Source of the DNA: a virus
DNA length: 64,000 nt
Virus record (IMG/VR): IMGVR_UViG_3300034418_007766
Location: 26,725 to 90,724 of that record
Strand: one strand, 5' to 3'
The first letter of the stretch is position 1. Each line of letters begins with the position of its first letter. The position numbers and the translations under genes are program-made. Positions 10,669 to 50,031 of the stretch are shown one piece after another. The notes below the pieces were generated by a model that was not told the origin of the DNA, searched no databases, and saw only the letters and a program-made list of their open reading frames with translations.

Positions 10669-10849
10669 TTAGCATTTTCCTCATTGCGTTGGTTGCTGTT
10701 TTTGTAAAAAATCTTGGCGCAACACTATGAATAATTACTGCTGGCACAAGTAATTGTAATTTTAGTGCAATTAAAAGTGCTTTACCCATGTGTTGTAAAC
10801 CTGTTTCGTTTACCTCTGCTAAATGTGCTTTGCATTGTTTGCTAAACAT
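10640..10849 (-). CDS. small membrane protein, DUF6356-like
   Basis: HLxxxxETxxxH...IHxxxPxxFxxTA pattern. Confidence 0.55.
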   Translation of the reverse strand: MFSKQCKAHLAEVNETGLQHMGKALLIALKLQLLVPAVIIHSVAPRFFTKTATNAMRKMLNERTQETDK

Positions 10850-16295: not shown

Positions 16296-16296
16296 A

Positions 16297-16656
16297 TTAG
16301 TCTCCTATAAACTGTGCAAGTTCTGGAGCCTTCCATCCTTCTGGCTTCAATACCTTGCCATCTTCACGCTTACGAACTTTGCCTGTTTCTGGATCAATCT
16401 TAGCAAAGTTTGTATCCATTACTTCTTTCCAAGCACCTTCGCCATCGTAGCCACCAGCACGTATAGCACCCATAGTAACAACAAGAATATCGATTAGTGC
16501 ATCTAGTTGTTCTACACGATCATCTGCTGCAATAGCATCTGCAAGTTCGTTGTATTCTTCTGCAATAAGACTGAGATACATATCATAGTTTGCTTCTGAT
16601 GGCTCTTGATCACACGCTGAGCCAAAGCGTTCAATATCTGCAAATGGATTTGTCAT
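16297..16656 (-). CDS. nucleoside triphosphate pyrophosphohydrolase (PRA-PH/MazG-like)
   Basis: EEYNEL, LDALID and REDGKVLKP motifs. Confidence 0.85.
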   Translation of the reverse strand: MTNPFADIERFGSACDQEPSEANYDMYLSLIAEEYNELADAIAADDRVEQLDALIDILVVTMGAIRAGGYDGEGAWKEVMDTNFAKIDPETGKVRKREDGKVLKPEGWKAPELAQFIGD

Positions 16657-17013
16657 TTACACCTCATCGGCCATATATACATCTTCAGGCTTATCTACAC
16701 TAAACGCAAGAATACAATCTGCATCAATCATACGCAATTCAGTCTCGCCTTCGCCTTCGTTAATGTTTACACCTCTTGTCCAACGACCGTGTTCGACTAA
16801 AATCCAATCGCCAACATTATATTCATCCTTGTTATTAGGACCTTTACTATGCACTTGTCCCCAACGTGGATAAATGCCTCGTGATTGACCGTTGTCGTCT
16901 ACAATGATCAAGCCACTTTTTGTTTTTTGTTCACCAAAATACATATTTTTTACAATTACCCTATCTCCAATAGGAGTTAGCTTACCGCTAATAGTATTTA
17001 GATTGATAGCCAT
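16657..17013 (-). CDS. groES: co-chaperonin GroES-like
   Basis: LTPIGDRVIV and KTKSGLII mobile-loop motifs. Confidence 0.8.
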   Translation of the reverse strand: MAINLNTISGKLTPIGDRVIVKNMYFGEQKTKSGLIIVDDNGQSRGIYPRWGQVHSKGPNNKDEYNVGDWILVEHGRWTRGVNINEGEGETELRMIDADCILAFSVDKPEDVYMADEV

Positions 17014-26698: not shown

Positions 26699-26998
26699 TT
26701 ATAATGCTGCTATTCGTGCTTGGAAGTCTGCAAAATCTGTTGCTGCTGCTACTTCTGTTTTGAGTGTTGCTAAACTTACATAACCCGGAATAACACCATT
26801 TACAGCATCTACTAATAATGTACTATCATCAGCAAACACACTGCCTTTGATATCTGTTACAACATTACCATCAGCTAATGCTGCAATATCAGTATATACT
26901 TCTGTAAAGTTTTCATTGACTTTGGTAAAGGCTACACGTAGTGGATCTCCGTCGCCGCTGTTATCATTTGTGCCTGTGTTTATAATTAACTGTGTCAT
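26699..26998 (-). CDS. small tail/baseplate protein
   Basis: GDGDPLRVAFTKVNENF N-terminal motif and DIKGSVFADDST. Confidence 0.65.
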   Translation of the reverse strand: MTQLIINTGTNDNSGDGDPLRVAFTKVNENFTEVYTDIAALADGNVVTDIKGSVFADDSTLLVDAVNGVIPGYVSLATLKTEVAAATDFADFQARIAAL

Positions 26999-29900
26999 TA
27001 TACTCTCCCTACCACTACTTCAATTGTTCCGTAGCCATCATCCTGTTTGGATTGTAGTGCTTTACCAATGACTGTGCCCATTTTAGGATTGTTATCAACT
27101 ATTGCATAACCAGCTTTAGCTGCTGTAACAAGCAGGTCGCCTTTTTCCACCCGACCAAGCACTTTTGTAGGAACTCTACCTTGAAGTGCTACACCAACCA
27201 CATGTTCACCTTTAAGCTCACTGTTCATGATATGCGCTGGATTTGTAGTTACAACACCAGCTACTCTTCTGTCACCTTTGGTGTTTGTTGTAGTTACTTC
27301 TTCGTCACCGCCAAACACTAGAACTGTGCCTGGTTCATAGTCTGTATCGCCTTTGTAGTTTTCAGCTAAGTCAGCGTAAAGAGCTTTTGTAGCAACACCA
27401 GCAAATGTAGTTGCATACACTGTGTTGAATATATCACCTGAAGTGCCGATAGTCTGACCATTGTCAGCACCACTACCATTTCCTGGTCCTCTAAATCCGC
27501 CAGGCGCAGTGATAGTTGAGGCAGAGCCAGCTGTAATAGTGCCGCCTCCGCTGATTGCACCGCCTACTGTTAGTAAATTTGTGTTTGGATTGTATGTAAT
27601 ACCAGTATCGGTTCTAAGAGTTTCTGCTGTTGCAGAAGCATTGTTATCAGCAACAAAAGTCAAATATTGTGTGGAGTTGGCGCTGTTTGATATTGTTTTT
27701 ATTGTATCAGCACTATCTGCATTGCCTGTTAATTCGCCTGTGCTTACATCAAGTATTACATCTGTGCCATTGTATATATCACCGTCAACATTTGCTGATA
27801 TTTTGCTTGGTAAGCCAATAACAAATGTAACATTTCCTGTGCTTGGTTCTGTAGTTGTGATACTTACTTCATTGGCTGTGCCTTGTATTCTAACAGCATT
27901 TCCTAGTGGAACATCAACATTGGCAGTCCCATCTCCGACACTAATAGAGCTATTGGATAATTTTGCGTTGGTAATGCTACCTGCTAGTTCATCGTTTGAA
28001 ATGCCAAGTGCTTTAATTCTAACACGACCAGTTAGTGTAGCACTATCTAGTTCTACTTCAAAGTTTTCGTCACTGTAGATACTCATTCCAAGGGTGCTTT
28101 GGACAAAAGTTCCATTTCCCCAACCAGTTGATCCATCATCTTCATCAAATGTCGTTGCGGCTTGTAAAGAAAGTTTGCTTTGAGCTATTCCTGCTGTATT
28201 ACTTACATCGGCATTTTCAATAGCACCTGCATTTATCTGTCCTTCCATCAAGCCTGAAGTAGCATCAAATGTCATTGAAAAGTCACTGTTTGCAACATTT
28301 GTATCAAATCCTGTGTTTATCCATCCATCTGTAGCGTCTTTGTAAATTAAGAATTCGCCAGCAGCTGGTGATGAAATAGTGGTATCTTCTAACTCACTGA
28401 GTTCATCTTGATTTGCTAATCCAGTATCAACATAATCTTTTGTGACAGCATCACTCGGTGATGTAGGTGTCGCTAAGTCGATAATTTGATTATTACCCAT
28501 ACGCAAATTGCCTGCTAAAGGCAAAATACCACTCAGTGGCAAGAAACCACCTGTGGTTTGTGGAATTAATTCTGCACCAGCAAGTGCAGTGCCGTTTCGA
28601 TCCATACCCAAACGTCTGTCGATATAACCTTCAACTGCTGTTTCAACTGGCACTGCATCAGCAGTAGCATTTGTAAATGTATCATCAGCACTAAATTCGT
28701 TGACACGCACACCTCGTTTAAAGCCAATACCGTCAATGTTTGTAAGAACAAGTGCAGCGTTAAATGTAATACGTCCTGTGCCTTGGTCAACTGTAAAGAA
28801 TCTACCAACACGGAAGAAACCATCTTGGTCTGTTGAAGCAAAGAACACTCTACCTCTATTACGTTCTTGAACTTGCGCTTTGCTTGCAAAACCTTCACTG
28901 TCTAAACTTTCTTCATCGGTAACGGCTGCAATTTTTGGACCACCAAAAATTCTATCTGGATAGTTACTGGTATTGTAACCACCTGTTCCTATGTCTAGGA
29001 AGTCATGTGAAGTAGCACGACAAGTTGAAATGTTTACAGTAACACTACCTGATTCTGCTTCTTGTAAGCCTACTTGCAAAGTAATATTGTTACCAGCTGC
29101 ATTACTTGCTCTTGCAGCAAGTCCTGAGCCCACATAAGTATCACTGATATTATATTTGTCGCTAAAACTAATGATACCAAAATCTGTGCCTGTTCCGCTA
29201 TCTGTTACCACTTGATATCCTGTTATAACATGCACTTTGCCTTGCCATGCAAAAATCATATCAGCTGTAGCATCGTCACCAAGATTTATACGATTCTGAT
29301 CTGCTGCGCTCAATATTGTTGACACAGCAATGTGTTGGTCACCTTGTGTATCGCCTAGTGTAGTGCCGCCAGTTAGACTGTATGTTGCTGGTGATTGTCC
29401 AGCAAAATCATTACTTACAACCAAATCTATGTAATCAAAGTTATCATCAATGGTCACTCTTGTTTGAGCGCCAATTGCTGGAACACCAGCTGTTAGTGTG
29501 TTTTCAAATGCAAGTGTTCTATACGTTACAGTTTCCTGCTCATCAAAAATCAAAGCAGTTGATGGTCTTGTAAGTGTTGCACTTGTAATACCGTTTAATA
29601 TTATGTTTTGTTGACTTGTCAACACAGCATTTGTAGCGTGAGCTACGTTGAATTGCAAACCTGTTGTTTCTGTAGAAACTTCACCGCCTGTGCCTGATGT
29701 AAATTCTAATCTCCAAATCTTTTTACCAATTAATCCTGGAAAGGATCCAATATCGTCATCAATTGTTCCGTCTACATAATCTGATGGTATTTCTCTTCCA
29801 GTATCGCTTACGTTAATTACTTCATATGGCTGGAATGTTGTTTCACTATCATTATGGTGAATTTCAAGTTGAGAAGCGTTTAATGGATAATTAGTGGCAT

Positions 29901-32900
29901 CGTAAATAAATGCACGTTGCGCACCTTTTGTTCCACCAAAATCTCTATTAACCAAACTCACTGGAACACCATAACTTTGGTAAACTGTTCCGCTACCTCC
30001 GGCGTTTGTTCCTGTTGCGGTAAATGCTAAACCAATCGTATTACTTGCTGCACCGACAGTAGTCCAATCAGATCCGTTAATACTACCAATAACATATCTT
30101 GTAGTAGCAAGAAGACTACCATCATTTGTTACGCTATTAAGTGTAATTTCGTCTGTGTCATTGAATGCATAATCATATCTTGTGGTTGCAGATACGTGTC
30201 TATTCACACTGATAATACTATTTGTTGCATTATCATCGTTAAAAATTACATTTGCATTTGCAATATTACCTGTTACAGTATCATATTGACGTAAAATATC
30301 ACCTCTTGCAATACCCGAACTATTACCAGTGATTTCAACTTCTTGATCAACATTAAATATTTTTACAGGCTGTGTTAAGTCTTGACCAATTGTAACTAAT
30401 TTTGCAACTTCGTCTGGGTCGCTACCCTCAGCAACCATGCCGTAATTACCATAGCTGTTGTTACCTGTCAAACTACGTATTTGAGAACCATTGCTTGATA
30501 AGTAACCAGTATGACAATAATATGTAAACACCGACACAAGTTCTGAAAGTGCGTTGTTACGTGCTATAACACCATAACCTAAATCGTTAATTTGTGTATA
30601 GTCGTTTGCAAGCATGGATTTATTACCAGCACCTTGTAAAATAATTGGTATTGGGCCGCCGGCACTATCAGTTTCATCGTCTAGTCCATTGCCGCCATTT
30701 GCTCCTGCATCAAGCACTAGTGTAGCTGTTGCCTTGCCTGCACCGTTATCGGGCACATAATCAACAATAGCATTAACTTGATAGCGTCTACCAAATTCAA
30801 AGAAACTACACGGCACTGTTGGCTTTCTAAATCCAAGGATGCTTGTAGTAGGAGCTTCTACTTGAATTCTGAATGGATCGCTGTTGCCGCCCTGTATAAC
30901 AGTCATAGGAACATTATAGCAATAGCCATCTATAAACATGCCGCCTGCAAATATTTTTTGAGTAACACCGCTTTTTGCAAAGCTAGAGCAGGTTTGTGCG
31001 TAAGGAGATCGTGTAAAGATAGCACCTTCAGGGTCAAGCACCATCATAAAACCGCCTTGTCTTTGTGCTGTGACATTTCTAATAATGGTGTTATCGCTAC
31101 AAAGGAACATGTCCATTTGGTTATTATCTAATGGTGGATTATAACTTGCATCAAATGCATATGCAACAAAACTAACAAGTGCGCTTGCGTTTGTATTTGC
31201 ATTGGTTTCTGCTACTAAATTATTATTAGATACTCTGCCTGTGTCGCCGCCCGCACCGCCGTAAGCTGTTTGTGCCAACACACTGGTAATAATAGTAGCA
31301 ATATTGTTGATTGCTGCTTCTGTTTCAGTCTCCTGTCCGGGAACAACATTTGCAGCATAGGCTTTTTGGTTTATACCACTTTGTATTCTTCCGCCAGTTC
31401 TTAAATCAGATTCAATACCGTCAACAATATATCCAGTGTCTCTACGACATTTTGTTTCATTATAAACCAAAGCAGGATATGCATCATTGATAAAACTAAT
31501 GGTTCTATCAATAATAAATTGTCTGTTTAAACTAATCAAGTCAGCAGCTTCGCTAAACTTACCTGGATTTGTAGCACCAAAGCTACTGATATCCATTTCG
31601 CTAGTAGGATCGGTTAGATAATGCCTACCAAAATAGCCATCGGTGTCGCCAGTTAAATCATTTACATATGCTTCACCTGCTGTTGCAGTTGTGTTTCCGT
31701 CAATGGTAGCATCTCTATAGAAATATGTATTTGCTGCTGGTGACAAACTCATGCCTGCTGCTGGTCGAATAATTACACGTCTAAATTCATCACCTTTGAT
31801 ACTTACGTTAGGTGGTAATCTAATTGGAAGTTGTTCTTCGTATACTCCAGTTTCGATTCTAATACTAATTTGCTGTTTCTTAACAAACGCACCATATTCA
31901 ATTTCTTCTTCGTCATCGAACTCAATAGGCAATAACAACTTTAATGAAATTGTGTCGTGTGTTGGAAAGCCATTTGCACTGTCGTCGATACCACGAGTAT
32001 AATCTTCTATAAATCCTACTGCACCAGAACGTTTACCTCTAACAATTTTGCCAGGAAAAATATCTGTATTTGGTTCATCTTCAGCTGGATCTCCTGCTTG
32101 TGTTAGGAATTTATTATTTCCGCTATACACATATAATTTGTAGTTGTTGCTTGCTTCAACAAATGCAGGGTCTGCTGTTGCAGTGTTAATTGTGTCTAAA
32201 ACATCATCAAATCTAGCTGCTGCGGTTAGATACCAAACGTTTCCTGTAGCACTGCCACCTAGAGCTGTGTTTACTGCTGCAAGCATGGTTACTTTTGCAA
32301 ATTGAAGTGCGCTGACAGTTTCTGTGTATTGTCCGCCGCCACCGGTATCAATTGCAATTTCGCCACTTGCGTTAGAGAAATATCTAAGTCCAGCGTAAAC
32401 ACTTAGGTAATTATGTTTGATACTACTAGTGCTTGCAAGAATATCAAGTCTGATACTTTGGTGTATCAGGGCTAAATCTCGTCTACAAATAGATTCATCG
32501 TAAACAAAATTAGGAAATGTTGATTCTATATGAGCAACAGTTTGATCGATTACACTTTGTAAATTAGCAGTGAATGCGGCTGCTACTGTAGCAGCATCTG
32601 CGGTAGAAGCTGTATATCCAGTGTTTAAATAATTTGTTACATATCCTGGATTTGTTCCTGTGCCGTCTGTAAATTGTAGAGTCTGAACATAAGGTCCAAC
32701 ATCAGGCATTGCAGCTTCTTGTAGTCTTGCTGCTCTTGCACATGCTGCTGCAATAGTTCTATAGGCATATTTTTCACTACGTCCTGCTCTACCAGGAGGT
32801 GTTTGTGATTGTGTATCATCGCCTGAAATGTTTACATATATGTTTTCGCTTAAACTATATTGTTGGGCATCAACATAATATTTTGTTGCTGCTTGTAGAT

Positions 32901-33921
32901 CGTCTTCTGAAGTTGGAGTTCCTGCACCTTGGAACGGCGAGGGATGATCGTGCAATGTAAGTGCACCAGTCATGGTATCGCCTTCTCTACGGACTATACT
33001 TTTTCTTGGAAGTATTGCATTGCCTTTCCAAAATCCTGACAAAGCACCATCACTATCGTCCCAGTTTGCATCCTTGAATGTTTGCGAGCCTGTTCCGCCG
33101 GTAGCAATAATCTGGTTTGTGTTGTTTAATGCATCGTTAGCAGTTGGGTGAATAGTAACTTGATTAGAAGTAGATCTACGCAAATAATAAGTATCACCAC
33201 TTGTAAGATTGGTTGCATCAGTTCCATCTGAATTATATAACCATGGACTACCTGTTACTGCTTCAGTCCATCCATGGGACACAATATTAGCTGCTCCATT
33301 AGTATAGCTTGCAATAGTTTTGGTATAATCTGCTGCATCAACTGGCTCATCTGCTACTGTAGGGCCAACTCCAAAATGATTGCGTGGAACATATTTTCTG
33401 TCAGCCAACCCAACACTTGGAACAACATGATCAATGTCAACATCTGGATCATGCACGGTATTCCAGCTGTCAACAAGTTGCTGGCGAGTAGCATCTCCTA
33501 GTATTAGTGGGTGTGTAGTATCACTGTAAGCAATAGCTGCACCCATTTTCAATGGAGATGAAATAGTAGGACTATTGTCAGTTTCGATGTTTACGTTTAT
33601 AACACGTAATTTGAGTTGATTGCCTTCAACAGTGAATGCAATTGTATTATCAGGATCATTAGGATCAGCATTGTTAGCATCAGAAACTAGGTCGTAAAAA
33701 TCAATACCAGTTCCAGCTTGATTGACTAATAAAACTTTACCTTCGTTTCCAACTGTGCTATTTGGTGTATCGTTAAGTGTGGTGAAACTAATTTGTCCAC
33801 CTAATCCAAAAACAGCATAGAGTTCATTAAAATTTTCGTTTACCTTTTTGAAGGATTCACGGATACTATCGCCTGTGCCGTCATTACCCTCTACACCAAT
33901 ATCTACTTCTTGTTTAGCCAT
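26998..33921 (-). CDS. very large tail-fibre/tail-associated protein (2307 aa) with C-terminal intramolecular chaperone domain
   Basis: NDGTGDSIRESFKKVNENF N-terminus; AATKYYVD / AVTKDYVD fibre motifs; C-terminal ADLAENY...YEPGTVL...GRVP peptidase-G2/IMC-like domain. Confidence 0.75.
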   Translation of the reverse strand: MAKQEVDIGVEGNDGTGDSIRESFKKVNENFNELYAVFGLGGQISFTTLNDTPNSTVGNEGKVLLVNQAGTGIDFYDLVSDANNADPNDPDNTIAFTVEGNQLKLRVINVNIETDNSPTISSPLKMGAAIAYSDTTHPLILGDATRQQLVDSWNTVHDPDVDIDHVVPSVGLADRKYVPRNHFGVGPTVADEPVDAADYTKTIASYTNGAANIVSHGWTEAVTGSPWLYNSDGTDATNLTSGDTYYLRRSTSNQVTIHPTANDALNNTNQIIATGGTGSQTFKDANWDDSDGALSGFWKGNAILPRKSIVRREGDTMTGALTLHDHPSPFQGAGTPTSEDDLQAATKYYVDAQQYSLSENIYVNISGDDTQSQTPPGRAGRSEKYAYRTIAAACARAARLQEAAMPDVGPYVQTLQFTDGTGTNPGYVTNYLNTGYTASTADAATVAAAFTANLQSVIDQTVAHIESTFPNFVYDESICRRDLALIHQSIRLDILASTSSIKHNYLSVYAGLRYFSNASGEIAIDTGGGGQYTETVSALQFAKVTMLAAVNTALGGSATGNVWYLTAAARFDDVLDTINTATADPAFVEASNNYKLYVYSGNNKFLTQAGDPAEDEPNTDIFPGKIVRGKRSGAVGFIEDYTRGIDDSANGFPTHDTISLKLLLPIEFDDEEEIEYGAFVKKQQISIRIETGVYEEQLPIRLPPNVSIKGDEFRRVIIRPAAGMSLSPAANTYFYRDATIDGNTTATAGEAYVNDLTGDTDGYFGRHYLTDPTSEMDISSFGATNPGKFSEAADLISLNRQFIIDRTISFINDAYPALVYNETKCRRDTGYIVDGIESDLRTGGRIQSGINQKAYAANVVPGQETETEAAINNIATIITSVLAQTAYGGAGGDTGRVSNNNLVAETNANTNASALVSFVAYAFDASYNPPLDNNQMDMFLCSDNTIIRNVTAQRQGGFMMVLDPEGAIFTRSPYAQTCSSFAKSGVTQKIFAGGMFIDGYCYNVPMTVIQGGNSDPFRIQVEAPTTSILGFRKPTVPCSFFEFGRRYQVNAIVDYVPDNGAGKATATLVLDAGANGGNGLDDETDSAGGPIPIILQGAGNKSMLANDYTQINDLGYGVIARNNALSELVSVFTYYCHTGYLSSNGSQIRSLTGNNSYGNYGMVAEGSDPDEVAKLVTIGQDLTQPVKIFNVDQEVEITGNSSGIARGDILRQYDTVTGNIANANVIFNDDNATNSIISVNRHVSATTRYDYAFNDTDEITLNSVTNDGSLLATTRYVIGSINGSDWTTVGAASNTIGLAFTATGTNAGGSGTVYQSYGVPVSLVNRDFGGTKGAQRAFIYDATNYPLNASQLEIHHNDSETTFQPYEVINVSDTGREIPSDYVDGTIDDDIGSFPGLIGKKIWRLEFTSGTGGEVSTETTGLQFNVAHATNAVLTSQQNIILNGITSATLTRPSTALIFDEQETVTYRTLAFENTLTAGVPAIGAQTRVTIDDNFDYIDLVVSNDFAGQSPATYSLTGGTTLGDTQGDQHIAVSTILSAADQNRINLGDDATADMIFAWQGKVHVITGYQVVTDSGTGTDFGIISFSDKYNISDTYVGSGLAARASNAAGNNITLQVGLQEAESGSVTVNISTCRATSHDFLDIGTGGYNTSNYPDRIFGGPKIAAVTDEESLDSEGFASKAQVQERNRGRVFFASTDQDGFFRVGRFFTVDQGTGRITFNAALVLTNIDGIGFKRGVRVNEFSADDTFTNATADAVPVETAVEGYIDRRLGMDRNGTALAGAELIPQTTGGFLPLSGILPLAGNLRMGNNQIIDLATPTSPSDAVTKDYVDTGLANQDELSELEDTTISSPAAGEFLIYKDATDGWINTGFDTNVANSDFSMTFDATSGLMEGQINAGAIENADVSNTAGIAQSKLSLQAATTFDEDDGSTGWGNGTFVQSTLGMSIYSDENFEVELDSATLTGRVRIKALGISNDELAGSITNAKLSNSSISVGDGTANVDVPLGNAVRIQGTANEVSITTTEPSTGNVTFVIGLPSKISANVDGDIYNGTDVILDVSTGELTGNADSADTIKTISNSANSTQYLTFVADNNASATAETLRTDTGITYNPNTNLLTVGGAISGGGTITAGSASTITAPGGFRGPGNGSGADNGQTIGTSGDIFNTVYATTFAGVATKALYADLAENYKGDTDYEPGTVLVFGGDEEVTTTNTKGDRRVAGVVTTNPAHIMNSELKGEHVVGVALQGRVPTKVLGRVEKGDLLVTAAKAGYAIVDNNPKMGTVIGKALQSKQDDGYGTIEVVVGRV

Positions 33922-33932
33922 TTTTTATTCCT

Positions 33933-34298
33933 TTACCATTGTGGTATATCTAATCTATCCATATCAAAATTTACACTCACTCCACAACCACACGAACTTT
34001 GTGCATTTGGATTGCGTATTTCAAAGTTTGCTCCAACCAAACTTCTAACATAATCTACTTCGGTCCCAATTAAGAACATCAAACTATGTGAACCTACTAC
34101 AAAAGCACTGCCGTTGGCTGTTTTTACTACTTCATCACCTTCTTCTAAATCTACTGGGCTTGCAATAGTGCCCCAATCATACTCAAAACCTGCACAACCA
34201 CCGCCTTTGATGTTAAGAGTAATGCCGTAGCAATTGTTCTCCTTGCTCAAAAGGTCTATCTGTTTCTCTGCTGCTGGTGTTAAAGTTAGTATGCTCAT
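33933..34298 (-). CDS. A-type Fe-S cluster carrier (IscA/SufA/HesB)
   Basis: GGGCAGFEY and SCGCGVS motifs. Confidence 0.92.
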   Translation of the reverse strand: MSILTLTPAAEKQIDLLSKENNCYGITLNIKGGGCAGFEYDWGTIASPVDLEEGDEVVKTANGSAFVVGSHSLMFLIGTEVDYVRSLVGANFEIRNPNAQSSCGCGVSVNFDMDRLDIPQW

Positions 34299-38102: not shown

Positions 38103-38930
38103 TCATCGCCAGTTCTCAATCACCCAAGGATCTTTGCAATCCTCTGGATTTGGTCTACCATGAAATACTGCAATACTTTGTTGTTTTTCTACTTTTGGAT
38201 AGCCAATATTTTTGAATACTCTAACACCGTTACGCAATTCTAAATCTCGCCTATCACGCATTTCCCATTTATAACTACGCACCCATTCATCTGGCCAAAA
38301 TGTAAAAGGTCTTGCACCTCTATACATCCAATCTTGGTCCCCTGGTAAACGTCTTATGTTGTGATCTTTGTTATCTAAAAAATCTTGATATTGATGAGCT
38401 CTACTGCCAATGCGTAATCTAAATACACTGCTGTTGACTCTATCCCATGTTGCTCTAATACTTCTATTGAAGTCTCTAATTATCACAAAATCTTTTTCTG
38501 GTTCGAAGTTAAAAAATCTATCTATATTGTTACATATGACTACATCGAGATCTAAAAACAATAGTGTTCCTCTAATAGGCAACTCGGTGCTAAAAAACCA
38601 TGGCTTAAACCACCATCCTTGTATCTTGTCTATATTGGGCAAAGGATGAATACATACACCATTTTGTATACCGGCAGCATTATCTGTAAAACAATGAAAC
38701 TGGTAAGTTTGTTGGCTATGTCGATTACACATGTTATAGAGTTTGTTTACATAGTCTGCAGAATACTTGGTTCCCCATTTCAAACACACAATATGTTTAT
38801 CTAGTTTAGGTGTTTCAGCAATCTTGGTAGCATCCTCAAAAACTGCATTGCAGTCTTTAGCTGTTTTTTCTATTGCTTTGCGAGCTTTGCGTTGTGCTTT
38901 AGTTTCGCCCGGATTGTATTTCTTAGCCAT
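38103..38930 (-). CDS. GT-A fold glycosyltransferase-like protein
   Basis: CLKWGTKY, FLDLD (DxD), NSSVF, GDQDW and FHGRPNP motifs. Confidence 0.75.
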   Translation of the reverse strand: MAKKYNPGETKAQRKARKAIEKTAKDCNAVFEDATKIAETPKLDKHIVCLKWGTKYSADYVNKLYNMCNRHSQQTYQFHCFTDNAAGIQNGVCIHPLPNIDKIQGWWFKPWFFSTELPIRGTLLFLDLDVVICNNIDRFFNFEPEKDFVIIRDFNRSIRATWDRVNSSVFRLRIGSRAHQYQDFLDNKDHNIRRLPGDQDWMYRGARPFTFWPDEWVRSYKWEMRDRRDLELRNGVRVFKNIGYPKVEKQQSIAVFHGRPNPEDCKDPWVIENWR

Positions 38931-39399
38931 CTACAAAAGACATCTTCTGCACTTGAAAAGGTGTATAAATTGCGCTGTTAGCACCATGCTCTGCACATTC
39001 TACACTTTCGCACCAGCAACGATTATCTGTCATTTCTTTGACAAGATCATTAGCAAACTTCCATGCATGATAAGCAAACTTTTCTACTCCTACACCATCT
39101 AAGAGTGTAAGTTCTGCTAGTCCTTTTTCTTGTAGCAATTCAAATGTTGCCATTTCCGGATCATCATTATCCAATACAACTTTGTGATCAAATGTATCTT
39201 CAAGCCATGCCTTCAATGGTTTTAATCCACCAAAGTCCACAACCCAGTTGCGTTCATCTAATTCACTTGCTCCAAACGTAAATTTAAATTGTAAACTGTA
39301 TCCATGTAAAAATTTACAATGGCTATGTGCTTTAGGTTGTCTAAAGCAGGCACTCAATCCAATGTTGTGCCCATATGTTTTCGTGCTATAGTAACTCAT
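38923..39399 (-). CDS. queD: 6-carboxytetrahydropterin synthase (QueD/PTPS family)
   Basis: CKFLHGY, VVDFGGLK and FDHK motifs. Confidence 0.88.
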   Translation of the reverse strand: MSYYSTKTYGHNIGLSACFRQPKAHSHCKFLHGYSLQFKFTFGASELDERNWVVDFGGLKPLKAWLEDTFDHKVVLDNDDPEMATFELLQEKGLAELTLLDGVGVEKFAYHAWKFANDLVKEMTDNRCWCESVECAEHGANSAIYTPFQVQKMSFVDG

Positions 39400-39463
39400 A
39401 TTATACTCCTCGGCTACTGGAGTGTGCGGAATGTTTATAGAGGGGCGAACACATTAGTCCTCT
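39400..39463 (-). ncRNA. preQ1-I-like pseudoknot leader, candidate riboswitch
   Basis: AGAGG/CCTCT stem, loop AATG pairs with CATT after ATAAA, anti-SD ACTCC/GGAGT hairpin; upstream of queD. Confidence 0.5.
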
Positions 39464-39470
39464 TAGTTTA

Positions 39471-39499
39471 ATAATACTAGTTATCAGATTGGTTGTCAA
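39471..39499 (-). promoter_or_regulatory. sigma70-type promoter for the queD leader
   Basis: TTGACA-17-TATTAT. Confidence 0.7.
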
Positions 39500-39791
39500 C
39501 CTTTAGTTCTTCTCGAATATTTTTAAGTTCATTGCTTACTTCTTTGATACCGATGTTTGTGCTAGATAAAATCTTTACTAACATATGAATACTTTTCATT
39601 GTCCACCACCACCAAATCACTGCTGTGACAAAATACAATCCACAGGCAATGAAGAACAGTGTTTGTGTGCTACAAAAACTGAATAGCCAAGCCAACATAA
39701 GAAGGCCAGTAAAAAAAATGGGCGCCAGTATTGCTGCTCTGTTCCATAACAATACTTGACGCTCCAATGCTTCAAGTGTAATATTTTTCAT
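39477..39791 (-). CDS. two-TM membrane protein
   Basis: Two hydrophobic helices; TAAATA 4 nt before the ATG. Confidence 0.65.
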   Translation of the reverse strand: MKNITLEALERQVLLWNRAAILAPIFFTGLLMLAWLFSFCSTQTLFFIACGLYFVTAVIWWWWTMKSIHMLVKILSSTNIGIKEVSNELKNIREELKVDNQSDN

Positions 39792-39830
39792 ACAGTATTT
39801 ATTATGTCATATTAGAGTTTATCTATATAT

Positions 39831-40166
39831 TTAATAGTTGGCACCATCCTCATGTCCGTTGCCATACTGGTGATCTACTTCTACTGCTGTAACTCTGTCA
39901 TAGCGGAAACTGCGCCAAGCACTGCGATCCACACACCAAACCACAAATACCTTTTCTTCTAAGTTGCGAATTTTGGTTTGGCTGAGCTTGTCATCTCGTT
40001 GTGCTGGAGGCAACATGCTTGGAACAAGTGTGCTTTGCATTCTACGTTCTTCGCCGTTTAGTTTTTTAAAAGTTATGTAAACCACTTCTTCTACCAGTAG
40101 TTTTTGTAATTCTTCTCGTGTGGGTATGCCTTTTAGAGCTGCTACTGTATCTGCTACTTTGTTCAT
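39831..40166 (-). CDS. SH3/WYL-like beta-barrel phage protein
   Basis: FKKLNGEERRM..TL...AWRSFR pattern. Confidence 0.7.
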   Translation of the reverse strand: MNKVADTVAALKGIPTREELQKLLVEEVVYITFKKLNGEERRMQSTLVPSMLPPAQRDDKLSQTKIRNLEEKVFVVWCVDRSAWRSFRYDRVTAVEVDHQYGNGHEDGANY

Positions 40167-41926: not shown

Positions 41927-42111
41927 GATGCCAATGCCTCTTTGTAACCAGCATATACAAGGCTTTGAAAATAGCTCTCAGCTTTTTTGCGATCGTGAAA
42001 CTCTTTGCTGGTTTCAAAATCCAACATATCATATTCGTTGAATACAGCACCGTTTTTGGTTACATCTACTGTGATTGATCGTTTGTTACGTTGTAAGACA
42101 CATGTTTTCAT
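41923..42111 (-). CDS. hypothetical protein
   Basis: Coupled ORF. Confidence 0.55.
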   Translation of the reverse strand: MKTCVLQRNKRSITVDVTKNGAVFNEYDMLDFETSKEFHDRKKAESYFQSLVYAGYKEALAS

Positions 42112-43291
42112 TTGCGTTCACCAGTTTTGCTATTACAGGGTTGACATCCATAAGAGACACTTTGCTCTTACTGTCTAGCTTACTTATAACATACTTACGC
42201 AAGTTGTCAAGTTCTTTTCTTGAATTTATTCGCCAATTTTTGTTTTTTATTTCTTCTAGATGCTGTGTTTCCATGAACTTTCGCACTTCGTTATCTATTA
42301 CACCAGTGCCTAAATGTTCTAACAAATAGTTTTTTTGCTGCCTATCAAGTAAACTGATATTGTAAAAAATTGGGTCATGCAAAAAATTACACACAAGATT
42401 ATCTATATCAAATCCTATGCTATCACACCATTTCTCCATGTTTGTGCCGCTCAAACTGTTAAGCAATCCTACTGTGTATGTAATTTTAACATCAACATCT
42501 TGTTGCATAGCGTGTTTGAAATTTTCTTCAAGTCTTCTCCATTTTGCAGGAGGACGTTGATATTCATAATTAGCACCTACATCATCTATACTGTAATGTA
42601 ATTGTATACTTTGAAACTTTGAAAATATTTCAAGCAGCCTATTTGTAAGTTTGAATGAGCCATTGGTGTGGAATTTGATCCAAATATTTTTTGCTCTATC
42701 GGTTTCAATCAAATGATCTAATAGCGTGTAGTGATCGTTGATCAAAAAAGGTTCGCCACCGCTGAGATACAACACTTCTAAGTTTTCACTGATGTTTACA
42801 ATGCTATCCCAGTTTTGTTTTTGTGTTACCCAATCTTTACCGTAGCTAGGATTAATAACTTGTCCAAAAATTTCTAGTTCAGTTTGTTCCCATTTTTTTG
42901 TAAATTCGCTATTGCAAATTTTACATTGTAGATTACAGTGATTGCCCAATTTAACATCAAACAACACAGGGTTAGGTGCATCTAATGAGTTCATAAGGTG
43001 CAAGTGTTTGCCATGCACCTGCATTTCTCTTTGACGTCTACTCAATATTCCTTGTGATTCTTGCGTAAAGCATTTACTACAACCATCGGGTTCTTCGCCG
43101 TTGATATACTGTTGTCTTAACCTAGTATATTCATGATTGTTCCATACACTTTCTAGTGTGGTGTTTGCATCATTTAAGTCAGTTTTACTGCCATCTTCAT
43201 TTACAAAGTCATACTTGTATTCTGCACAAGGTCTAACAAACCCTGTTGCACACACTTCAATTTGTGTCCATGGCACAATACATTTACGCAT
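42086..43291 (-). CDS. radical SAM protein with N-terminal SPASM/twitch-like domain
   Basis: CIVPW...RPC...CSKC, then CNLQCKIC and SGGEPF. Confidence 0.85.
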   Translation of the reverse strand: MRKCIVPWTQIEVCATGFVRPCAEYKYDFVNEDGSKTDLNDANTTLESVWNNHEYTRLRQQYINGEEPDGCSKCFTQESQGILSRRQREMQVHGKHLHLMNSLDAPNPVLFDVKLGNHCNLQCKICNSEFTKKWEQTELEIFGQVINPSYGKDWVTQKQNWDSIVNISENLEVLYLSGGEPFLINDHYTLLDHLIETDRAKNIWIKFHTNGSFKLTNRLLEIFSKFQSIQLHYSIDDVGANYEYQRPPAKWRRLEENFKHAMQQDVDVKITYTVGLLNSLSGTNMEKWCDSIGFDIDNLVCNFLHDPIFYNISLLDRQQKNYLLEHLGTGVIDNEVRKFMETQHLEEIKNKNWRINSRKELDNLRKYVISKLDSKSKVSLMDVNPVIAKLVNANENMCLTT

Positions 43292-44771
43292 CTAATTTTT
43301 CCATCAATTGTTTATAATAAAACTTATCATAAAAATATTTAAACTTTTCGTTTTCTGATCCTTCTATGTCATTGCAATATGCATCATATAAACTCCAATA
43401 TTTCCAAACTTTAGGAGGAAATGTGTTGTGTTCAGCAACTGCTTGATTAGCAAAGTCTGCTATCTTTTGTGCTTGTAAAGAGTTTGAGATATCTCCGCTG
43501 TCATTTCTTGTCCATGTCAAGCCATCTATTGTATAGTTGTAATGGTTAGGATTGCGATCTATAGCACTGTCAAACATAAAATTATTTAGGTCGCCAAGAT
43601 CCTTTAATAACAAAGCATTGAAACTCAGCGCATCTATATAATTGTTACCTTCTTTGCTATACCAATTTACCATGTCAAGCACATCTTGCTCGTTATCATA
43701 AGGCAATCCTACAACATAGCCTGCATTTACATACACATCGTCTGCCCAAACCTGTTTACAATTTTTCATGCCTTGTATTTTAATATCTTTATTATCACCT
43801 TTGCCTACAATTTTGCTGGTTTTGTTGTTCCAAGTTTCTAGTCCATAATAAATTCTACGCAATCCAATATCATACATTAACTGTGCTTGATGCTTTTGTT
43901 TTGCAACCAAGTCCATGCGAACATATGCTTCAAAATAAGGTTGGTAATCTAAACTTTGTATTACCTCATTTACAAGTTCTAATTTTGGCGTGTAATCATT
44001 GAAAGTGTCGTCAACGATATAATACTGATATACACCCCATTTTTTATAATTTTCACTGAGCTCTTTGAACAACACATCTTGATATTTGGTGTAGTCTTTG
44101 GTATTTTGTCCGATGTGTGGATAACTACAAAATGCGCAATTAAATATGCATCCTCTGCTAATTTCTATTGTAAGTATTTCTTCACTGTTTATGCAATCAG
44201 TATCTTCATAAGAAACCGATGTATTAGCAAAATTATGATTTGGACCATGCCCACGTGGATCGTAGTTATAGATGTGTTCACGCTTGCCTTGTAGATAGTC
44301 TACAAATTGATTTTCACAAAAGCCAACAAAAATTCTATCCCATTCTGTATCTCGAACGTATTCAAAAACTTTACTGCCTCCAACAATGCATTCTGTGCGA
44401 TTATTAACTTGCTTGACATAATCTATGTAGCGGTTTTGATTGCCCAAGAAAATTTGCCAACTCATGCCTTCGTTGAAGTTAACTGTTCTTGTGTCTCTGC
44501 TTTCAGGTCCAAGTAAATATTGATTTCCGCCAAATGTTCTCCATGGAAACCATGTAATACTCCAGCCAACACAAACAGTATTTGATCCAACTGTTTTGTC
44601 TATTATTGTTTGGTATTGTTCCCAAGTAATACAACTTGAAAAGTCGATAACAATTGCACTGTGCCCTTGCGCTCTAGCTAGATTGGCAATTTTATAGGCA
44701 CCTAATCCTCTTTGCGGTGAAAGTTTATCTGCAATGTCAGTAAAAATTACAACATCATAGGTCATTTTCAA
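43284..44771 (-). CDS. B12-binding-like radical SAM protein
   Basis: EISRGCIFNCAFC, DDTFND and GLET motifs. Confidence 0.85.
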   Translation of the reverse strand: MKMTYDVVIFTDIADKLSPQRGLGAYKIANLARAQGHSAIVIDFSSCITWEQYQTIIDKTVGSNTVCVGWSITWFPWRTFGGNQYLLGPESRDTRTVNFNEGMSWQIFLGNQNRYIDYVKQVNNRTECIVGGSKVFEYVRDTEWDRIFVGFCENQFVDYLQGKREHIYNYDPRGHGPNHNFANTSVSYEDTDCINSEEILTIEISRGCIFNCAFCSYPHIGQNTKDYTKYQDVLFKELSENYKKWGVYQYYIVDDTFNDYTPKLELVNEVIQSLDYQPYFEAYVRMDLVAKQKHQAQLMYDIGLRRIYYGLETWNNKTSKIVGKGDNKDIKIQGMKNCKQVWADDVYVNAGYVVGLPYDNEQDVLDMVNWYSKEGNNYIDALSFNALLLKDLGDLNNFMFDSAIDRNPNHYNYTIDGLTWTRNDSGDISNSLQAQKIADFANQAVAEHNTFPPKVWKYWSLYDAYCNDIEGSENEKFKYFYDKFYYKQLMEKLDA

Positions 44772-45805: not shown

Positions 45806-45895
45806 TGGCGGAAAGGGTGGGATTCGAACCCACGGTAGAGTCTCCCCTACTTCGGTTTTCAAGACCGACGCCTTAAGCCTCTCGGCCACCTTTCC
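45806..45895 (-). tRNA. tRNA-Ser(UGA)
   Basis: TCGGT-CT-TGA-AA-ACCGA, long variable arm, GCCA end. Confidence 0.95.
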
Positions 45896-45899
45896 TTGT

Positions 45900-45973
45900 T
45901 GGAGCGGGTAAGGAGAATCGAACTCCTATCATCTGCTTGGAAGGCAGAGGTCTTACCATTACACAATACCCGC
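45900..45973 (-). tRNA. tRNA-Gly(UCC)
   Basis: TCTGC-CT-TCC-AA-GCAGA, TCCA end. Confidence 0.95.
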
Positions 45974-45977
45974 GATA

Positions 45978-46054
45978 TGGTCCGGGTGGAAGGATTTGAA
46001 CCTCCGACATCTACGCCCCAAACGTAGCGGTCTACCAGACTGACCTACACCCGG
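45978..46054 (-). tRNA. tRNA-Pro(UGG)
   Basis: CTACG-TT-TGG-GG-CGTAG, ACCA end. Confidence 0.95.
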
Positions 46055-46058
46055 AATA

Positions 46059-46133
46059 TGGTGGGCCCGGAGGAAGTCGAATCCCCAATCGATGCGTTAT
46101 GAGCGCACTGCTTTACCATTAAGCTACAAGCCC
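46059..46133 (-). tRNA. tRNA with CAU anticodon, probably Ile2 (lysidine type); elongator Met not excluded
   Basis: GTGCG-CT-CAT-AA-CGCAT; GGGC acceptor; paired 1:72, so not an initiator. Confidence 0.85.
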
Positions 46134-47373: not shown

Positions 47374-48148
47374 AATAATTTACACCTTTGAGTGAATCAG
47401 GTTTTGCTAGTTTTTCAATCAACCATTTACCAAAGTCAGGTTGTCCGCGGTTCCATCCAAACGCATAACTCCAAGGTGCCGCATGGTGATTGTTGTGCCA
47501 GCCTTCTCCCCAAGAGTATAATCCCATAATAAATGTGTTCTTAGAATCATCGTTTGTGTCAGTATCTTTATGTCCAAACATATGGGCACCTACAGTAATC
47601 CAGGATATAGTATGTAAACAAAACATTGTGCTTACTAGGTATCCATACATAAACAAGTCAGGATTGATAGCAAACAATAACAATCCCCAGCCAACTAATA
47701 TATGAAAATAGTATTTGTTAAAAAATCTATGATACGGATCTTTTAGTAAATCAATGACTATCCTTGGACTTACATGATGATAAGGCACAAAATTATGCCA
47801 TAATTTAAACTTTTGCCACAAGGTAGAATTTCTAATGCAGTGCGGATCTTTATCAGTGTCTGAATACTTATGGTGTATTCTATGCGTAGCAGTCCATGGA
47901 ATAGTAGGACCAACTGTGTTAATTACAGATAAAAAATGTAATATAATTAATATAAAATTATTTTTTGGTTCCCAAGATTTATGAGAAAAACAACGATGTA
48001 ACCCCATACTGATTCCAACATGCACTACTATCCAAGAAAATAACCACGAGCCAAATAGGTATGCTGCATTAAAGTTAAAAATTAACACCAAGGGTCCGCC
48101 TACATAACAAGCCAATTGAAACATATTTGTTTTTTGATCAACTCTCAT
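47363..48148 (-). CDS. membrane fatty-acid (delta-9 type) desaturase
   Basis: His boxes HRCFSH, HRIHH and GEGWHNNHH. Confidence 0.9.
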   Translation of the reverse strand: MRVDQKTNMFQLACYVGGPLVLIFNFNAAYLFGSWLFSWIVVHVGISMGLHRCFSHKSWEPKNNFILIILHFLSVINTVGPTIPWTATHRIHHKYSDTDKDPHCIRNSTLWQKFKLWHNFVPYHHVSPRIVIDLLKDPYHRFFNKYYFHILVGWGLLLFAINPDLFMYGYLVSTMFCLHTISWITVGAHMFGHKDTDTNDDSKNTFIMGLYSWGEGWHNNHHAAPWSYAFGWNRGQPDFGKWLIEKLAKPDSLKGVNYYDK

Positions 48149-49647
48149 TGGTTGTGTTTGCTTTCTATTTTTTTAGTCACATATAAATCTAACGGATCAG
48201 GATCTGTGTCCGTATCTATTTTTTTGTCATCCCATATATTAACATTTAATTTTAATGCATCTCGTAGGTTTTCCACACTGTATAGTCTGTTCATAATATA
48301 AAAGTTTGGCTCTACTGTAAAGATGTTTTCAGGAGAAAACATTTTGCTACACCACATGCTTGCTTCATAAAAGTTGGTTTGATCGTTTTGCCAAAAGAAA
48401 TAGTGATCGTCAAGTCTATGATGTGCAAGTTTACCAAACTGTTCGTATTCATTTTTTAATGCGTCAATAGTTGATTGATCTGATATTTTGCTGTATCCAT
48501 ACTTGGCCGGATCGTCGCTGAATAAACTATTTGTGTTATCGTTGCTACTGTCGTTGGTTATATCCAAAGGCCACCAATGCCATGTTTCAGTGCGCCAGTT
48601 CTTCTTCATCCATTTTTGAGTTTTATGCCAACTTTTTTCATCTTCTCCTGGTAATCCAGCAATCAATCCAATACTACCTCGATATAAACCTAAATGATCT
48701 AAAAAATACTTTCGAATATTAATTAAACAACGTTTTATTTTACTAGGTGACATACCTTTGCCTATCGCTTTCGCAGCCACAGGATGGAAAGTTTCTACAC
48801 CATAAAAGTGTGCCCATATTCTAGCACGTTTCAATAATTCTTTTTGATATGGCCTAACCACTACTAGGTCAACTCTAACAAAAGCACTGAAGTTTGGTTT
48901 GAATGGCAAACTTTCAACAACGTCTGCTATCATACGCAATTTGTCATCATCATCGTTTACTGTGCTATCAGCAATGATATAATTTTTTACACCATATAAA
49001 TTGTAATTGTTTATTAACTCTTCTCTAACATTTTCAGGATCGCGAAACACACTTTTTTTAAATCCTAAAAAAGCATAACTGCAATATTTACATTTGAATC
49101 TACAGCCTCTACTGAGTTCAATGGTTAGTGCTTCAAACGGTTGTATATGGTCGCTGTGATTGTATGTAACTGTGAGATCTCTGATGCTGTGTGCAGGATA
49201 ATCTGTGTCTGCATTCACCAGCATTGTCATACCATTGTGTATCATAGTATGTTTTGGAGGTGGTCCGTTGTTGAACAGATAATCAATGATAGGGTCAGCT
49301 GCATGTTCAAAAAATCCTGTGCAAACTAAATCAAACCCTTCGTATTTTTGGAATGGTTGTTGTCCACCTGCGAAATATTTTCTACCAGGAAAAGTTTTTT
49401 TGAGCCATTGCACATATTCTCCAATAATGTCTTGAAGCATCCATGTATAACTAAATGCAAATGCAACAGTGTCTGGTGTAACAATTTTACTTACATACTC
49501 TTTGAGTTTTTGGATATCCCATTGCTCAACAAAGTCTATCACTTCTACTTCAAAACCCATATCACGCAGAATGTTTGCAGTCCTATAAGCACCACTTGAT
49601 CTACGTTGAAACTGACTTGCATTGAATAAAACTATGTGGCCGTGCAT
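48145..49647 (-). CDS. B12-binding-like radical SAM protein
   Basis: ELSRGCRFKCKYC, DSTVND and GVET motifs; paralogue of 43284-44771. Confidence 0.85.
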   Translation of the reverse strand: MHGHIVLFNASQFQRRSSGAYRTANILRDMGFEVEVIDFVEQWDIQKLKEYVSKIVTPDTVAFAFSYTWMLQDIIGEYVQWLKKTFPGRKYFAGGQQPFQKYEGFDLVCTGFFEHAADPIIDYLFNNGPPPKHTMIHNGMTMLVNADTDYPAHSIRDLTVTYNHSDHIQPFEALTIELSRGCRFKCKYCSYAFLGFKKSVFRDPENVREELINNYNLYGVKNYIIADSTVNDDDDKLRMIADVVESLPFKPNFSAFVRVDLVVVRPYQKELLKRARIWAHFYGVETFHPVAAKAIGKGMSPSKIKRCLINIRKYFLDHLGLYRGSIGLIAGLPGEDEKSWHKTQKWMKKNWRTETWHWWPLDITNDSSNDNTNSLFSDDPAKYGYSKISDQSTIDALKNEYEQFGKLAHHRLDDHYFFWQNDQTNFYEASMWCSKMFSPENIFTVEPNFYIMNRLYSVENLRDALKLNVNIWDDKKIDTDTDPDPLDLYVTKKIESKHNQ

Positions 49648-49707: not shown

Positions 49708-49782
49708 TGGTGGAGCCTAGGGGGGTCGAACCCCTGACTTCGGAATGCAAATCCGATGTTTTCCCAACTATACTAAGGCCCC
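49708..49782 (-). tRNA. tRNA-Ala(UGC)
   Basis: TCGGA-TT-TGC-AT-TCCGA, G3:U70, ACCA. Confidence 0.95.
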
Positions 49783-49786
49783 TTTA

Positions 49787-49861
49787 TGGTGCTGCTGGAG
49801 AGAATCGAACTCCCAATCTACTGATTACAAGTCAGTTGCCTTACCATTCGGCCACAGCAGC
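49787..49861 (-). tRNA. tRNA-Thr(UGU)
   Basis: ACTGA-CT-TGT-AA-TCAGT, ACCA. Confidence 0.95.
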
Positions 49862-49939
49862 GTTATTCCTTTGCTCTACCAACTGAGCTAGTCCAGCTTT
49901 GGCGGTCGGACTGGGAATCGAACCCAGTCAACCCTTTTA
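49862..49939 (-). ncRNA. circularly permuted tRNA-like module (T-arm, acceptor, D-arm; no anticodon arm)
   Basis: CTGGG-TTCGATT-CCCAG TCCGACC GCCA AA GCTGGAC TA GCTC-AGTTGGTA-GAGC. Confidence 0.6.
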
Positions 49940-50031
49940 TGGCGGTGACGCAGGGATTCGAACCCTGGGAACGCTTAATCACGTTCAACTCCTTAGCAGG
50001 GAGCCGCTTTCGACCACTCAGCCACATCACC
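49940..50031 (-). tRNA. tRNA-Ser(GCU)
   Basis: GCTCC-CT-GCT-AA-GGAGT, long variable arm, GCCA. Confidence 0.95.

Follow-up and report, generated by a model that had tools for sequence, protein, structure and literature searches.

A conserved phage pseudoknot in queD leaders as a candidate preQ1-I-like riboswitch

Small pseudoknot aptamers are favoured models of RNA-ligand recognition, and one compact class, SAM-V, is known from aquatic metagenomes. Among the systems that act on translation, the add adenine riboswitch of Vibrio vulnificus is an ON switch, in which the ligand-stabilised aptamer frees the Shine-Dalgarno (SD) sequence or the start codon. Biosynthetic genes are not usually controlled by ON switches, and we know of almost no riboswitch classes that are carried only by viruses. 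In phage T4, the leader pseudoknot of gene 32 is an autoregulatory operator, and gene 32 itself encodes the RNA-binding effector. As described in PMC10690425, the GP32 leader pseudoknot of phages binds a protein, and that structure has no Rfam model. In preQ1-I riboswitches (types I-III), an unpaired specificity cytosine stands directly 5' of the P1 3' strand and is preceded by A or U, according to the review PMC11625349.

The leader described here belongs to a queD-like gene in a 90.7-kb virus record, for which the CheckV completeness of 26% at this length implies a giant phage. All positions refer to the window, by which we mean the whole 64,000-nt stretch of this record that was analysed. 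An H-type pseudoknot is predicted for the minus-strand bases 39463-39422 (42 nt), which would place it at the 5' end of the queD mRNA or close to it (Table 1). The letters quoted in the original prediction (promoter, P1, the AUAAA from 39438, SD hairpin and AUG) are all present, on the minus strand.

Table 1. Predicted features of the queD leader and the genes that follow it, in window positions
Feature	Position	Strand	Remark
Sigma-70-type promoter	TTGACA 39499-39494; TATTAT 39476-39471	minus	17-nt spacer
queD leader	39400-39466	minus	
P1 5' strand (P1a), AGAGG	39463-39459	minus	closing G39459 invariant
L1, ACUAAU	39458-39453	minus	conserved ACU, then variable spacer
P2 5' strand (P2a), GUGUUCG	39452-39446	minus	GUGU upper, U39448, CG lower
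L2, CC (consensus NC)	39445-39444	minus	unpaired; C39444 invariant, just 5' of P1b
P1 3' strand (P1b), CCUCU	39443-39439	minus	
L3, AUAAACAUUC	39438-39429	minus	A-rich tail, consensus nWAAAnAYUC; A39432, U39430 and C39429 invariant
P2 3' strand (P2b), CGCACAC	39428-39422	minus	CG, C39426, ACAC; predicted switching strand
Sequestering hairpin	39405-39423	minus	anti-SD ACUCC 39423-39419, 9-nt loop, GGAGU 39409-39405
SD, AGGAG	39410-39406	minus	
queD-like gene, 158 aa	38923-39399	minus	start AUG 39399-39397; regulated gene
Glycosyltransferase-like gene, 275 aa	38103-38930	minus	overlaps queD stop by 8 nt

Folded on its own, the leader is unexceptional: RNAfold gives a minimum free energy of -10.8 kcal/mol (z = +0.64), a value equalled or bettered by 151 of 200 shuffles. 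The evidence for the predicted fold beyond chance is comparative. The upstream regions of relatives that were found through their QueD-like protein share the leader with obvious compensatory changes, and aligning phage queD leaders, a check proposed in the original prediction, revealed a conserved, covarying structure. In this alignment (A1; 32 distinct leader cores found via the protein, aligned by MAFFT blind to structure), 91.2% of cells are paired, compared with 68.8 +/- 1.7% in shuffles, and changes on both sides are found in 8 of 11 pairs. In pairing, compensatory cells and covariation score, the real alignment is equalled by none of 500 shuffles; 78 of 500 reach its count of compensatory pairs and 373 of 500 its count of pair types. 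Slid controls pair at 35-60%.

A larger alignment (A4; 100 distinct sequences) is 94.7% paired and has compensatory changes in 11 of 13 pairs; on none of the five measures does any of 500 shuffles reach it, and slides pair at 34-57%. It was aligned to a model of P2 and takes 69 of its 100 rows from a pattern that fixes the conserved loop bases, so that the 32-row set is the one free of both pattern and model-fitting effects. The positions of P1 and upper P2 were unconstrained in the scan pattern. In both alignments the sequences are related, and the counts overstate the independent events. The P1 columns with compensatory changes in A4 are 3-34, 4-33, 5-32 and 6-31 (A-U/U-A 72/28; G-C/C-G 98/2), and the closing G-C pair is kept in 32 of 32 and 100 of 100 rows. 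Among relatives, P1 occurs as AGAGG/CCUCU, AGUGG/CCACU, AGACG/CGUCU, and AAGG/CCUU against UAGG/CCUA. Upper P2 covaries as well, for example with G-C/C-G at 30/70 in A4 columns 21-51, and the R-Y pair of lower P2 is A-U in 57 and G-C in 43 rows with zero mismatches. The GUGU-U-CG/CG-C-ACAC of the window is replaced elsewhere by ACG-U-CG/CG-C-CGU, GGCG-U-CA/UG-C-CGCC or AGG-AU-CG/CG-U-CCU, among others.

What had been proposed for this locus at the outset, that queD has a conserved, riboswitch-like leader pseudoknot with a sigma-70-type promoter immediately before it, is supported, and we are nearly certain that it is a real, conserved and phage-specific cis-regulatory pseudoknot. The pairing that forms the knot is a different one from that originally preferred. 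The helix of AAUG 39455-39452 with CAUU 39433-39430 is paired at 46.6%, compared with 48.4% in shuffles (494 of 500 at least as high), and we have abandoned it. The alternative that had been offered, UGUGU with GCACA, is essentially the P2 supported by covariation (39452-39446 with 39428-39422).

Across relatives, the lower part of P2 has 2 bp, and a conserved U.C mismatch separates it from a variable upper stem of 3-7 bp. U39448 is invariant and faces C39426, which is C in 95 of 100 rows. Invariant throughout the 32 protein-first rows are the closing G of P1, the C of ACU, U39448, C39447, C39444 and C39443, together with A39432, U39430, C39429 and G39427, and all of them lie at or beside the P1/P2 junction. 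By analogy, this cluster of invariant unpaired bases marks the place where small pseudoknot riboswitches hold their ligand, and a covarying structured 5' UTR element with such bases is a candidate aptamer. The ACU that the original prediction read in loop 1 is present and conserved in the alignments: C9 is invariant in the 32 rows, with A8 and T10 at 90% or above, and in the 100-row set the tally is A 97, C 100 and U 97 of 100, which is partly imposed by the search pattern. The base before the invariant unpaired C is A in 54, U in 31 and C in 15 of 100 rows, and it is C in the window. The segment from P1a to the invariant U, i.e. free L1 plus the upper P2 strand, takes 8 to 14 nt, and one subgroup has a shorter L3 of 6-7 nt.

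Searches against known RNA families return nothing relevant at this locus. With Rfam at gathering thresholds, only 7 tRNAs are found in the whole window, and at E <= 10 the regions 38800-40000 and 39390-39480 give only chance matches to unrelated families. The PreQ1 model (RF00522), whose use on this leader had been suggested in the original prediction, has no match at E <= 10 in either region. Over the whole record its best scores are 14.6, 13 and 11.2 bits, all elsewhere, compared with a gathering score of 39, in a search that exceeds its cut-off in 1 of 14 control genomes. One subgroup carries GACUUGGCG...CCGCC, which resembles the ZTP (pfl) motif; this candidate was rejected, since other subgroups show free covariation at these positions and the Rfam searches of the two regions returned no pfl match. 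No published description of the motif was found, with the candidate lists of PMC10690425 (more than ten thousand phage RNAs), which may include it, searched in part.

To describe the distribution, relatives of the QueD-like gene were collected from viral contigs (at least 597), and the best 80 were taken. The motif model R1 detects a single copy in 55 of 81 sources, namely in the window plus 54 of the best 80 loci. Every copy lies just upstream of a queD-like match, and there is no other match at E <= 1 in 333 kb; the record of the window and the records of five large relatives each contain a single copy. The motif is dispensable in some phages, because 26 of the best 80 protein-first loci are without it (one of these is too short to judge). 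In the motif-less loci, queD is placed directly behind a promoter, or it is packed against the upstream gene with a QueE-like gene downstream.

Starting from the motif instead of the protein, the association is again exclusively with queD-like genes. Viral contigs scanned with a motif pattern yield at least 117 stretches, and among the matches listed a QueD-like ORF is found just downstream in 79 of 80 flanked viral loci, with the last one cut by the contig end. The same pattern detects 90 stretches in contigs of prokaryote genomes, mostly poorly pairing and chance-like. Seven of the best-pairing matches there (at least 9 of 11) were examined, of which 5 precede QueD-like ORFs of 40-66% identity, all on short contigs of metagenome-assembled genomes (MAGs). 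Two matches on prokaryote contigs (L154 and L159) were set aside, having no ORF longer than 60 aa within 90 nt. The motif has been found only on contigs of uncultured phages and on a small number of short contigs from MAGs. Cultured phage records hold 108 QueD homologues, all below 60% identity, and at the four of these 108 loci that were checked (Pan1, BUCT-ZZ01, Phosso and Motura) the motif is absent, with a best R1 score of 10.3 bits compared with 31.8-65.3 bits for true copies. By blastn, the 1.1-kb region has no match in cultured phage records, one of the other motif copies (L019) has no match either, and the motif of the window gives 18-nt chance matches only (E = 4).

The promoter of the window matches the consensus at 11 of 12 positions and ranks first of the 8 promoter-like sites in 38800-39900, where shuffles contain 3.1 +/- 1.6. 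It overlaps the 3' end of the upstream ORF (stop codon 39479-39477, minus strand), and the predicted +1 falls at about 39464-39462 on the minus strand, within a few bases of P1. Generally, TTGACn-N16-18-TAnnnT is found in 66 of 136 distinct regions upstream of motif copies, and in these the -10 element ends 5-32 nt (mostly 6-16) ahead of P1. No intrinsic terminator was found in 38800-39900. Metatranscriptomic contigs from four freshwater-labelled runs match the locus at 99% or above; contigs of this kind carry no information on strand, transcription start or expression level, and they may stem from carried-over DNA. In three of the four runs, RNA-library contigs bridge leader and queD (38756-39534, 38274-39457 and 39120-39536), one contig spans both queD and the 275-aa glycosyltransferase-like gene, and those of two runs reach 39534 and 39536, upstream of the predicted promoter; the contig ends 39457, 39534 and 39536 and the uncovered parts carry no evidential weight.

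The 3' strand of P2 could also pair elsewhere, with the part of the leader that initiates translation. In the window, the anti-SD has two bases, A39423 and C39422, in common with P2b. The SD hairpin reaches -5.4 kcal/mol when the 3' part is folded alone, and the unpaired probability of the SD rises from 0.23 without the knot to 0.85 with the knot strands blocked. Over 128 leaders the mean rises from 0.51 to 0.76 (79 up, 22 down), a comparison that is biased towards "up", since blocking bases removes partners. The best duplex between the end of L3 or P2b and the ribosome-binding site has a mean of -8.37 kcal/mol, compared with -5.95 for shuffled segments, and this signal is modest per sequence (mean z -1.24; below -2 in 23 of 128).

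In most relatives the partner is the start codon instead of the SD. P2b ends in CAU at its 3' side in 84 of 128 distinct leaders, and the uninterrupted CAU/AUG helix has a mean of 6.5 bp there, compared with 4.6 bp for CAU elsewhere in the leader. For example, start-codon designs include GCCGU/AUGGC, GCCAUAU/AUAUGGC, AAGUCAUC/GAUGACUU, GUCAUC/GAUGGC and CAUUCUG/UAGAAUG, and anti-SD designs include CCUC/GAGG and CUCCG/UGGAG besides the ACUCC/GGAGU of the window. These unlike designs of the subgroups all use the P2b strand or the end of L3, with the SD beginning 3-27 nt past P2b. Since the P2b strand also pairs with the SD or the start codon, knot formation should free the ribosome site. P2 formation and sequestration of the site would be mutually exclusive in these models, which we infer to be the wiring of an ON switch. 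Feedback repression through an SD-sequestering platform, as first proposed for this leader, does not agree with this arrangement: the anti-SD or anti-start strand overlaps or abuts P2b, so the knot competes with sequestration.

A ligand-independent fold at the mRNA 5' end might serve for mRNA protection, for a fixed low level of translation, or as a thermometer or Mg2+ response. Structures at the 5' terminus stabilise bacterial and phage mRNAs, the motif starts within a few bases of the predicted +1, and some queD loci manage without it. However, a stabiliser calls for a stem and has no need of a pseudoknot in which ten unpaired or junction bases are invariant, and the repeated, differently built pairings of P2b with the ribosome site point to a two-state device. 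Moreover, about half of the motif copies are inside operons, behind a stop codon, and not at a 5' end, and we regard a ligand-independent fold as decidedly unlikely.

The ORF behind the leader belongs to the PTPS/QueD family (Pfam PTPS 8e-17; phrog_2389, QueD-like, 1.2e-43), and its score against NCBIfam QueD is 38.6 bits, under the cut-off of 89.25. The protein is 50-56% identical to QueD of cultured phages that bear QueC/FolE/QueF clusters. The 275-aa gene is directly downstream of queD in 54 of the best 80 loci, and it is probably co-regulated with it. Its product matches phrog_1962 (4.4e-20) and contains an invariant DLD motif; weak Pfam GT8 matches occur in 6 of 15 family members, and a PDB sequence-profile search with this protein returned no solved relative.

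Other genes of the pathway are present in the same phages. The record of the window has FolE and a truncated QueE-like gene at its start, outside the window. FolE is found in four of the five large relatives and weak QueE-type matches in all five, none of them above the NCBIfam cut-off. By Pfam, no QueC or TGT-family gene was detected in the five, one of which is rated 91% complete. In this 91%-complete relative, a 290-aa protein is QueE-like (phrog_2076, 2.2e-51), and its gene lies beside phosphoribosyltransferases, a HIT protein and an NAD-synthetase-like protein. A cultured Synechococcus phage has the cluster QueE - xanthine-guanine PRTase - QueD - FolE. These genes suggest a pathway that starts from GTP and leads to a 7-deazapurine, reaching at least CDG. 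Since neither QueC nor a TGT-family gene was detected by Pfam in the 91%-complete relative, preQ0 and preQ1 may not be the products of the phage.

These genes, together with the conserved junction, bear on what the knot may recognise. The invariant unpaired C is placed as in preQ1-I, which suggests a ligand with a guanine-like face, and a guanine-like heterocycle is the most likely candidate, i.e. a pterin substrate, a purine or a 7-deazaguanine. Under ON logic, a pterin substrate or a purine, acting by feed-forward, would fit better than an end product. Alternatively, the effector might be a protein of the phage or its host. The knot would then be a translational operator bound by QueD itself, by a partner enzyme or by a general translational repressor, and the competing helix would tune the control. 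Leader pseudoknots that bind proteins are known in phages, such as GP32 in PMC10690425, and conserved single-stranded junction bases suit a protein as well as a small molecule. However, the regulated gene encodes a small metabolic enzyme and not a nucleic-acid-binding protein, and the copies of the motif are only 40-50 nt long, with their invariant bases focused at the P1/P2 junction by the preQ1-I-like C. Furthermore, the motif is kept across QueD proteins that are only 40% identical, with which a protein partner would have to co-vary. An operator of this kind is unlikely, and we leave it a small share of the probability.

Taken together, a switch operated by a small molecule explains the locus best. 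The strand P2b would have two possible partners, with the anti-SD in the window and a CAU against the start codon in most relatives providing the second one. Without the effector, the ribosome-binding site would be held in a hairpin. The effector would stabilise the knot, P2 would claim the shared strand and the ribosome site would open, so that QueD, and probably also the downstream glycosyltransferase-like protein, could be made. That an effector-stabilised knot switches queD translation ON in this way is, in our judgement, reasonably probable. More tentatively, the motif may represent a riboswitch class that is confined to phages, responds to some metabolite besides preQ1 and switches queD translation ON. 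This metabolite might be the pterin on which QueD acts, a purine set free in the course of infection, or a 7-deazapurine such as CDG. If this is true, it would be the first riboswitch devoted to the timing of nucleobase modification by a virus for its own use and would provide a new ligand-RNA pair on a preQ1-I-like scaffold, with queD, the first committed enzyme of the phage 7-deazaguanine pathway, under its control.

The motif takes about 42 nt, is abundant in uncultured aquatic phages, shows unusually rich covariation and is tied to one gene family. Finding the ligand would show how a giant phage times its 7-deazaguanine pathway, and it would supply a natural ON-type counterpart to the OFF switches of preQ1-I as well as a compact new sensor for synthetic biology. 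The identity of the ligand would also help to assign the product of the unit formed by QueD and the glycosyltransferase.

Among known systems, preQ1-I resembles the motif most, and in the comparison that follows its features are those given in PMC11625349. Both are very small H-type pseudoknots in the 5' leader of a gene of the queuosine/7-deazaguanine pathway, with a 5-bp P1 that has a conserved closing G, an A-rich L3, an unpaired cytosine directly 5' of P1b (preceded here by A, U or C), and conserved bases clustered at the helix junction (PMC11625349). The differences concern the loops and P2. L1 is ACU plus a spacer here but UU/U in preQ1-I, L2 has 2 nt instead of 4-6, and P2 has 6-9 bp with a U.C mismatch and leaves the SD outside, whereas P2 of preQ1-I has 3-4 bp and includes part of the SD (PMC11625349). 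L3 of the queD-leader motif is about 10 nt, and the predicted logic is ON here and OFF in preQ1-I. The echo of preQ1-I noticed in the original prediction therefore holds for P1, the unpaired C and the A-rich tail and does not extend to a match with the Rfam PreQ1 model. The motif is a preQ1-I-like variant and is not filed as a member of preQ1-I, because it lacks a match to the RF00522 model and three of the structural hallmarks of that family. As a variant rather than a canonical preQ1-I, it may have a different ligand.

The same comparison bears on whether the motif is after all a preQ1-I member or close variant that binds preQ1 or preQ0 and represses queD by its end product through SD sequestration. 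The shared G-C-closed P1, the AC, UC or CC before P1b, the A-rich tail and the topology speak for it, as do the place of queD in the 7-deazaguanine pathway, the FolE and QueE-like genes of the same record and the QueD homologues in QueC/QueF clusters of cultured phages. However, RF00522 finds nothing at the motif even at E <= 10, and L1, L2 and the long mismatched P2 without SD differ as listed above. The sequestering helix competes with P2, which predicts ON and not OFF, and the 91%-complete relative is without QueC and a TGT-family gene by Pfam. We consider this end-product reading very improbable, and binding of preQ1 or preQ0 under any logic still unlikely.

The T4 gene 32 operator is likewise an H-type pseudoknot at the 5' end of a phage leader that acts on translation (predicted here) and stands outside Rfam; the product downstream of the queD motif is a PTPS/QueD-family enzyme and not a nucleic-acid-binding protein, the two have no sequence similarity, and the queD motif has a helix competing at the start site. 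SAM-II, SAM-V and other H-type pseudoknot riboswitches of Rfam are also compact and classic in form, and their ligand pocket lies at the helices or runs along them, but their models do not match, and the conserved bases and the gene association differ. The add riboswitch is a three-way junction and not a pseudoknot, has no sequence relation to the motif, and differs in that most copies here (84 of 128) would sequester the start codon. What the two would have in common is the switching principle, in which the ribosome-binding site can pair with a strand that also forms the 3' side of a helix in the aptamer.

The gene behind queD differs among the related loci. In the window, the stop codon of queD is overlapped by a gene for a GT-A/GT8-like protein, and among 80 related loci (the best 80 of at least 597 viral-contig relatives identified by a protein-first search) 54 have such a gene directly downstream of queD. 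The pseudoknot motif of the leader is absent at some queD loci, which fall into two sets. At the first (L022, L027, L054, L055, L060, L074 and L076), the SD is immediately preceded by a promoter, and the glycosyltransferase-like gene is still located downstream of queD. At the second (L029-L033, L046-L048, L052, L058, L059, L061 and L071), the upstream gene abuts queD, and a QueE-like gene then replaces the glycosyltransferase-like gene after it.

Near the leader, two runs have RNA-library contigs that extend beyond the -35 hexamer by about 35 nt on its upstream side, with their ends at 39534 and 39536; one RNA-library contig ends at 39457, within the motif. These ends come from RNA libraries alone and so give no evidence for where a transcript ends.

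Four radical SAM proteins are encoded within this single window, all on the minus strand. The two tRNA arrays hold 7 tRNA genes in total (Rfam). The host-like proteostasis genes encode a ClpB-type AAA+ protein, a peptide deformylase, DnaJ, a GroES-like protein and a Bax-inhibitor-1 family protein. A 2307-aa ORF (26998-33921, minus strand) has no Pfam match at E <= 1e-4.

Features of the window
Feature	Position	Strand	Detail
Proteostasis genes	100-3662, 15609-17013	-	host-like
PhoH	7929-8705	+	
ThyX	9143-9829		
Ferredoxin	10849-11190		
Radical SAM protein	17432-19306	-	Pfam B12-binding domain; KedN5 family (methylcobalamin-dependent C-methyltransferases), below cut-off
Fe-S assembly protein	33933-34298		
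GT-A/GT8-like protein, 275 aa	38103-38930	-	phrog_1962; invariant DLD
Radical SAM protein, twitch/SPASM-domain	42086-43291	-	NF033640, 2.2e-80
Radical SAM protein	43284-44771	-	B12-binding radical SAM families (NCBIfam), below cut-off
tRNA gene arrays	45809-46133, 49711-50031	-	Rfam
Radical SAM protein	48145-49647	-	B12-binding radical SAM families (NCBIfam), below cut-off
Phage-encoded protein, 681 aa	59476-61521	-	CHASE2 sensor + adenylate/guanylate cyclase domains

FolE, QueD and a QueE-like radical SAM protein are present in the phage and its relatives (stretches G000:C1:1-1097, from the phage's own record outside the window, L099 at G001:C1:33000-47000, and L313), and their neighbours include phosphoribosyltransferases, a HIT protein, a 2OG-Fe(II) oxygenase, a PnrA-like binding protein and an NAD-synthetase-like PP-loop enzyme. 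Pfam searches of five large records, including one that is 91% complete, detected neither QueC nor TGT. This combination hints that the phage and its relatives run a 7-deazapurine route at the nucleotide level.

To our knowledge, the textbook 7-deazaguanine pathway includes no unit of QueD and a glycosyltransferase. The gene cluster of the cultured Synechococcus phage BUCT-ZZ01 is arranged as QueE - XGPRT - QueD - FolE.
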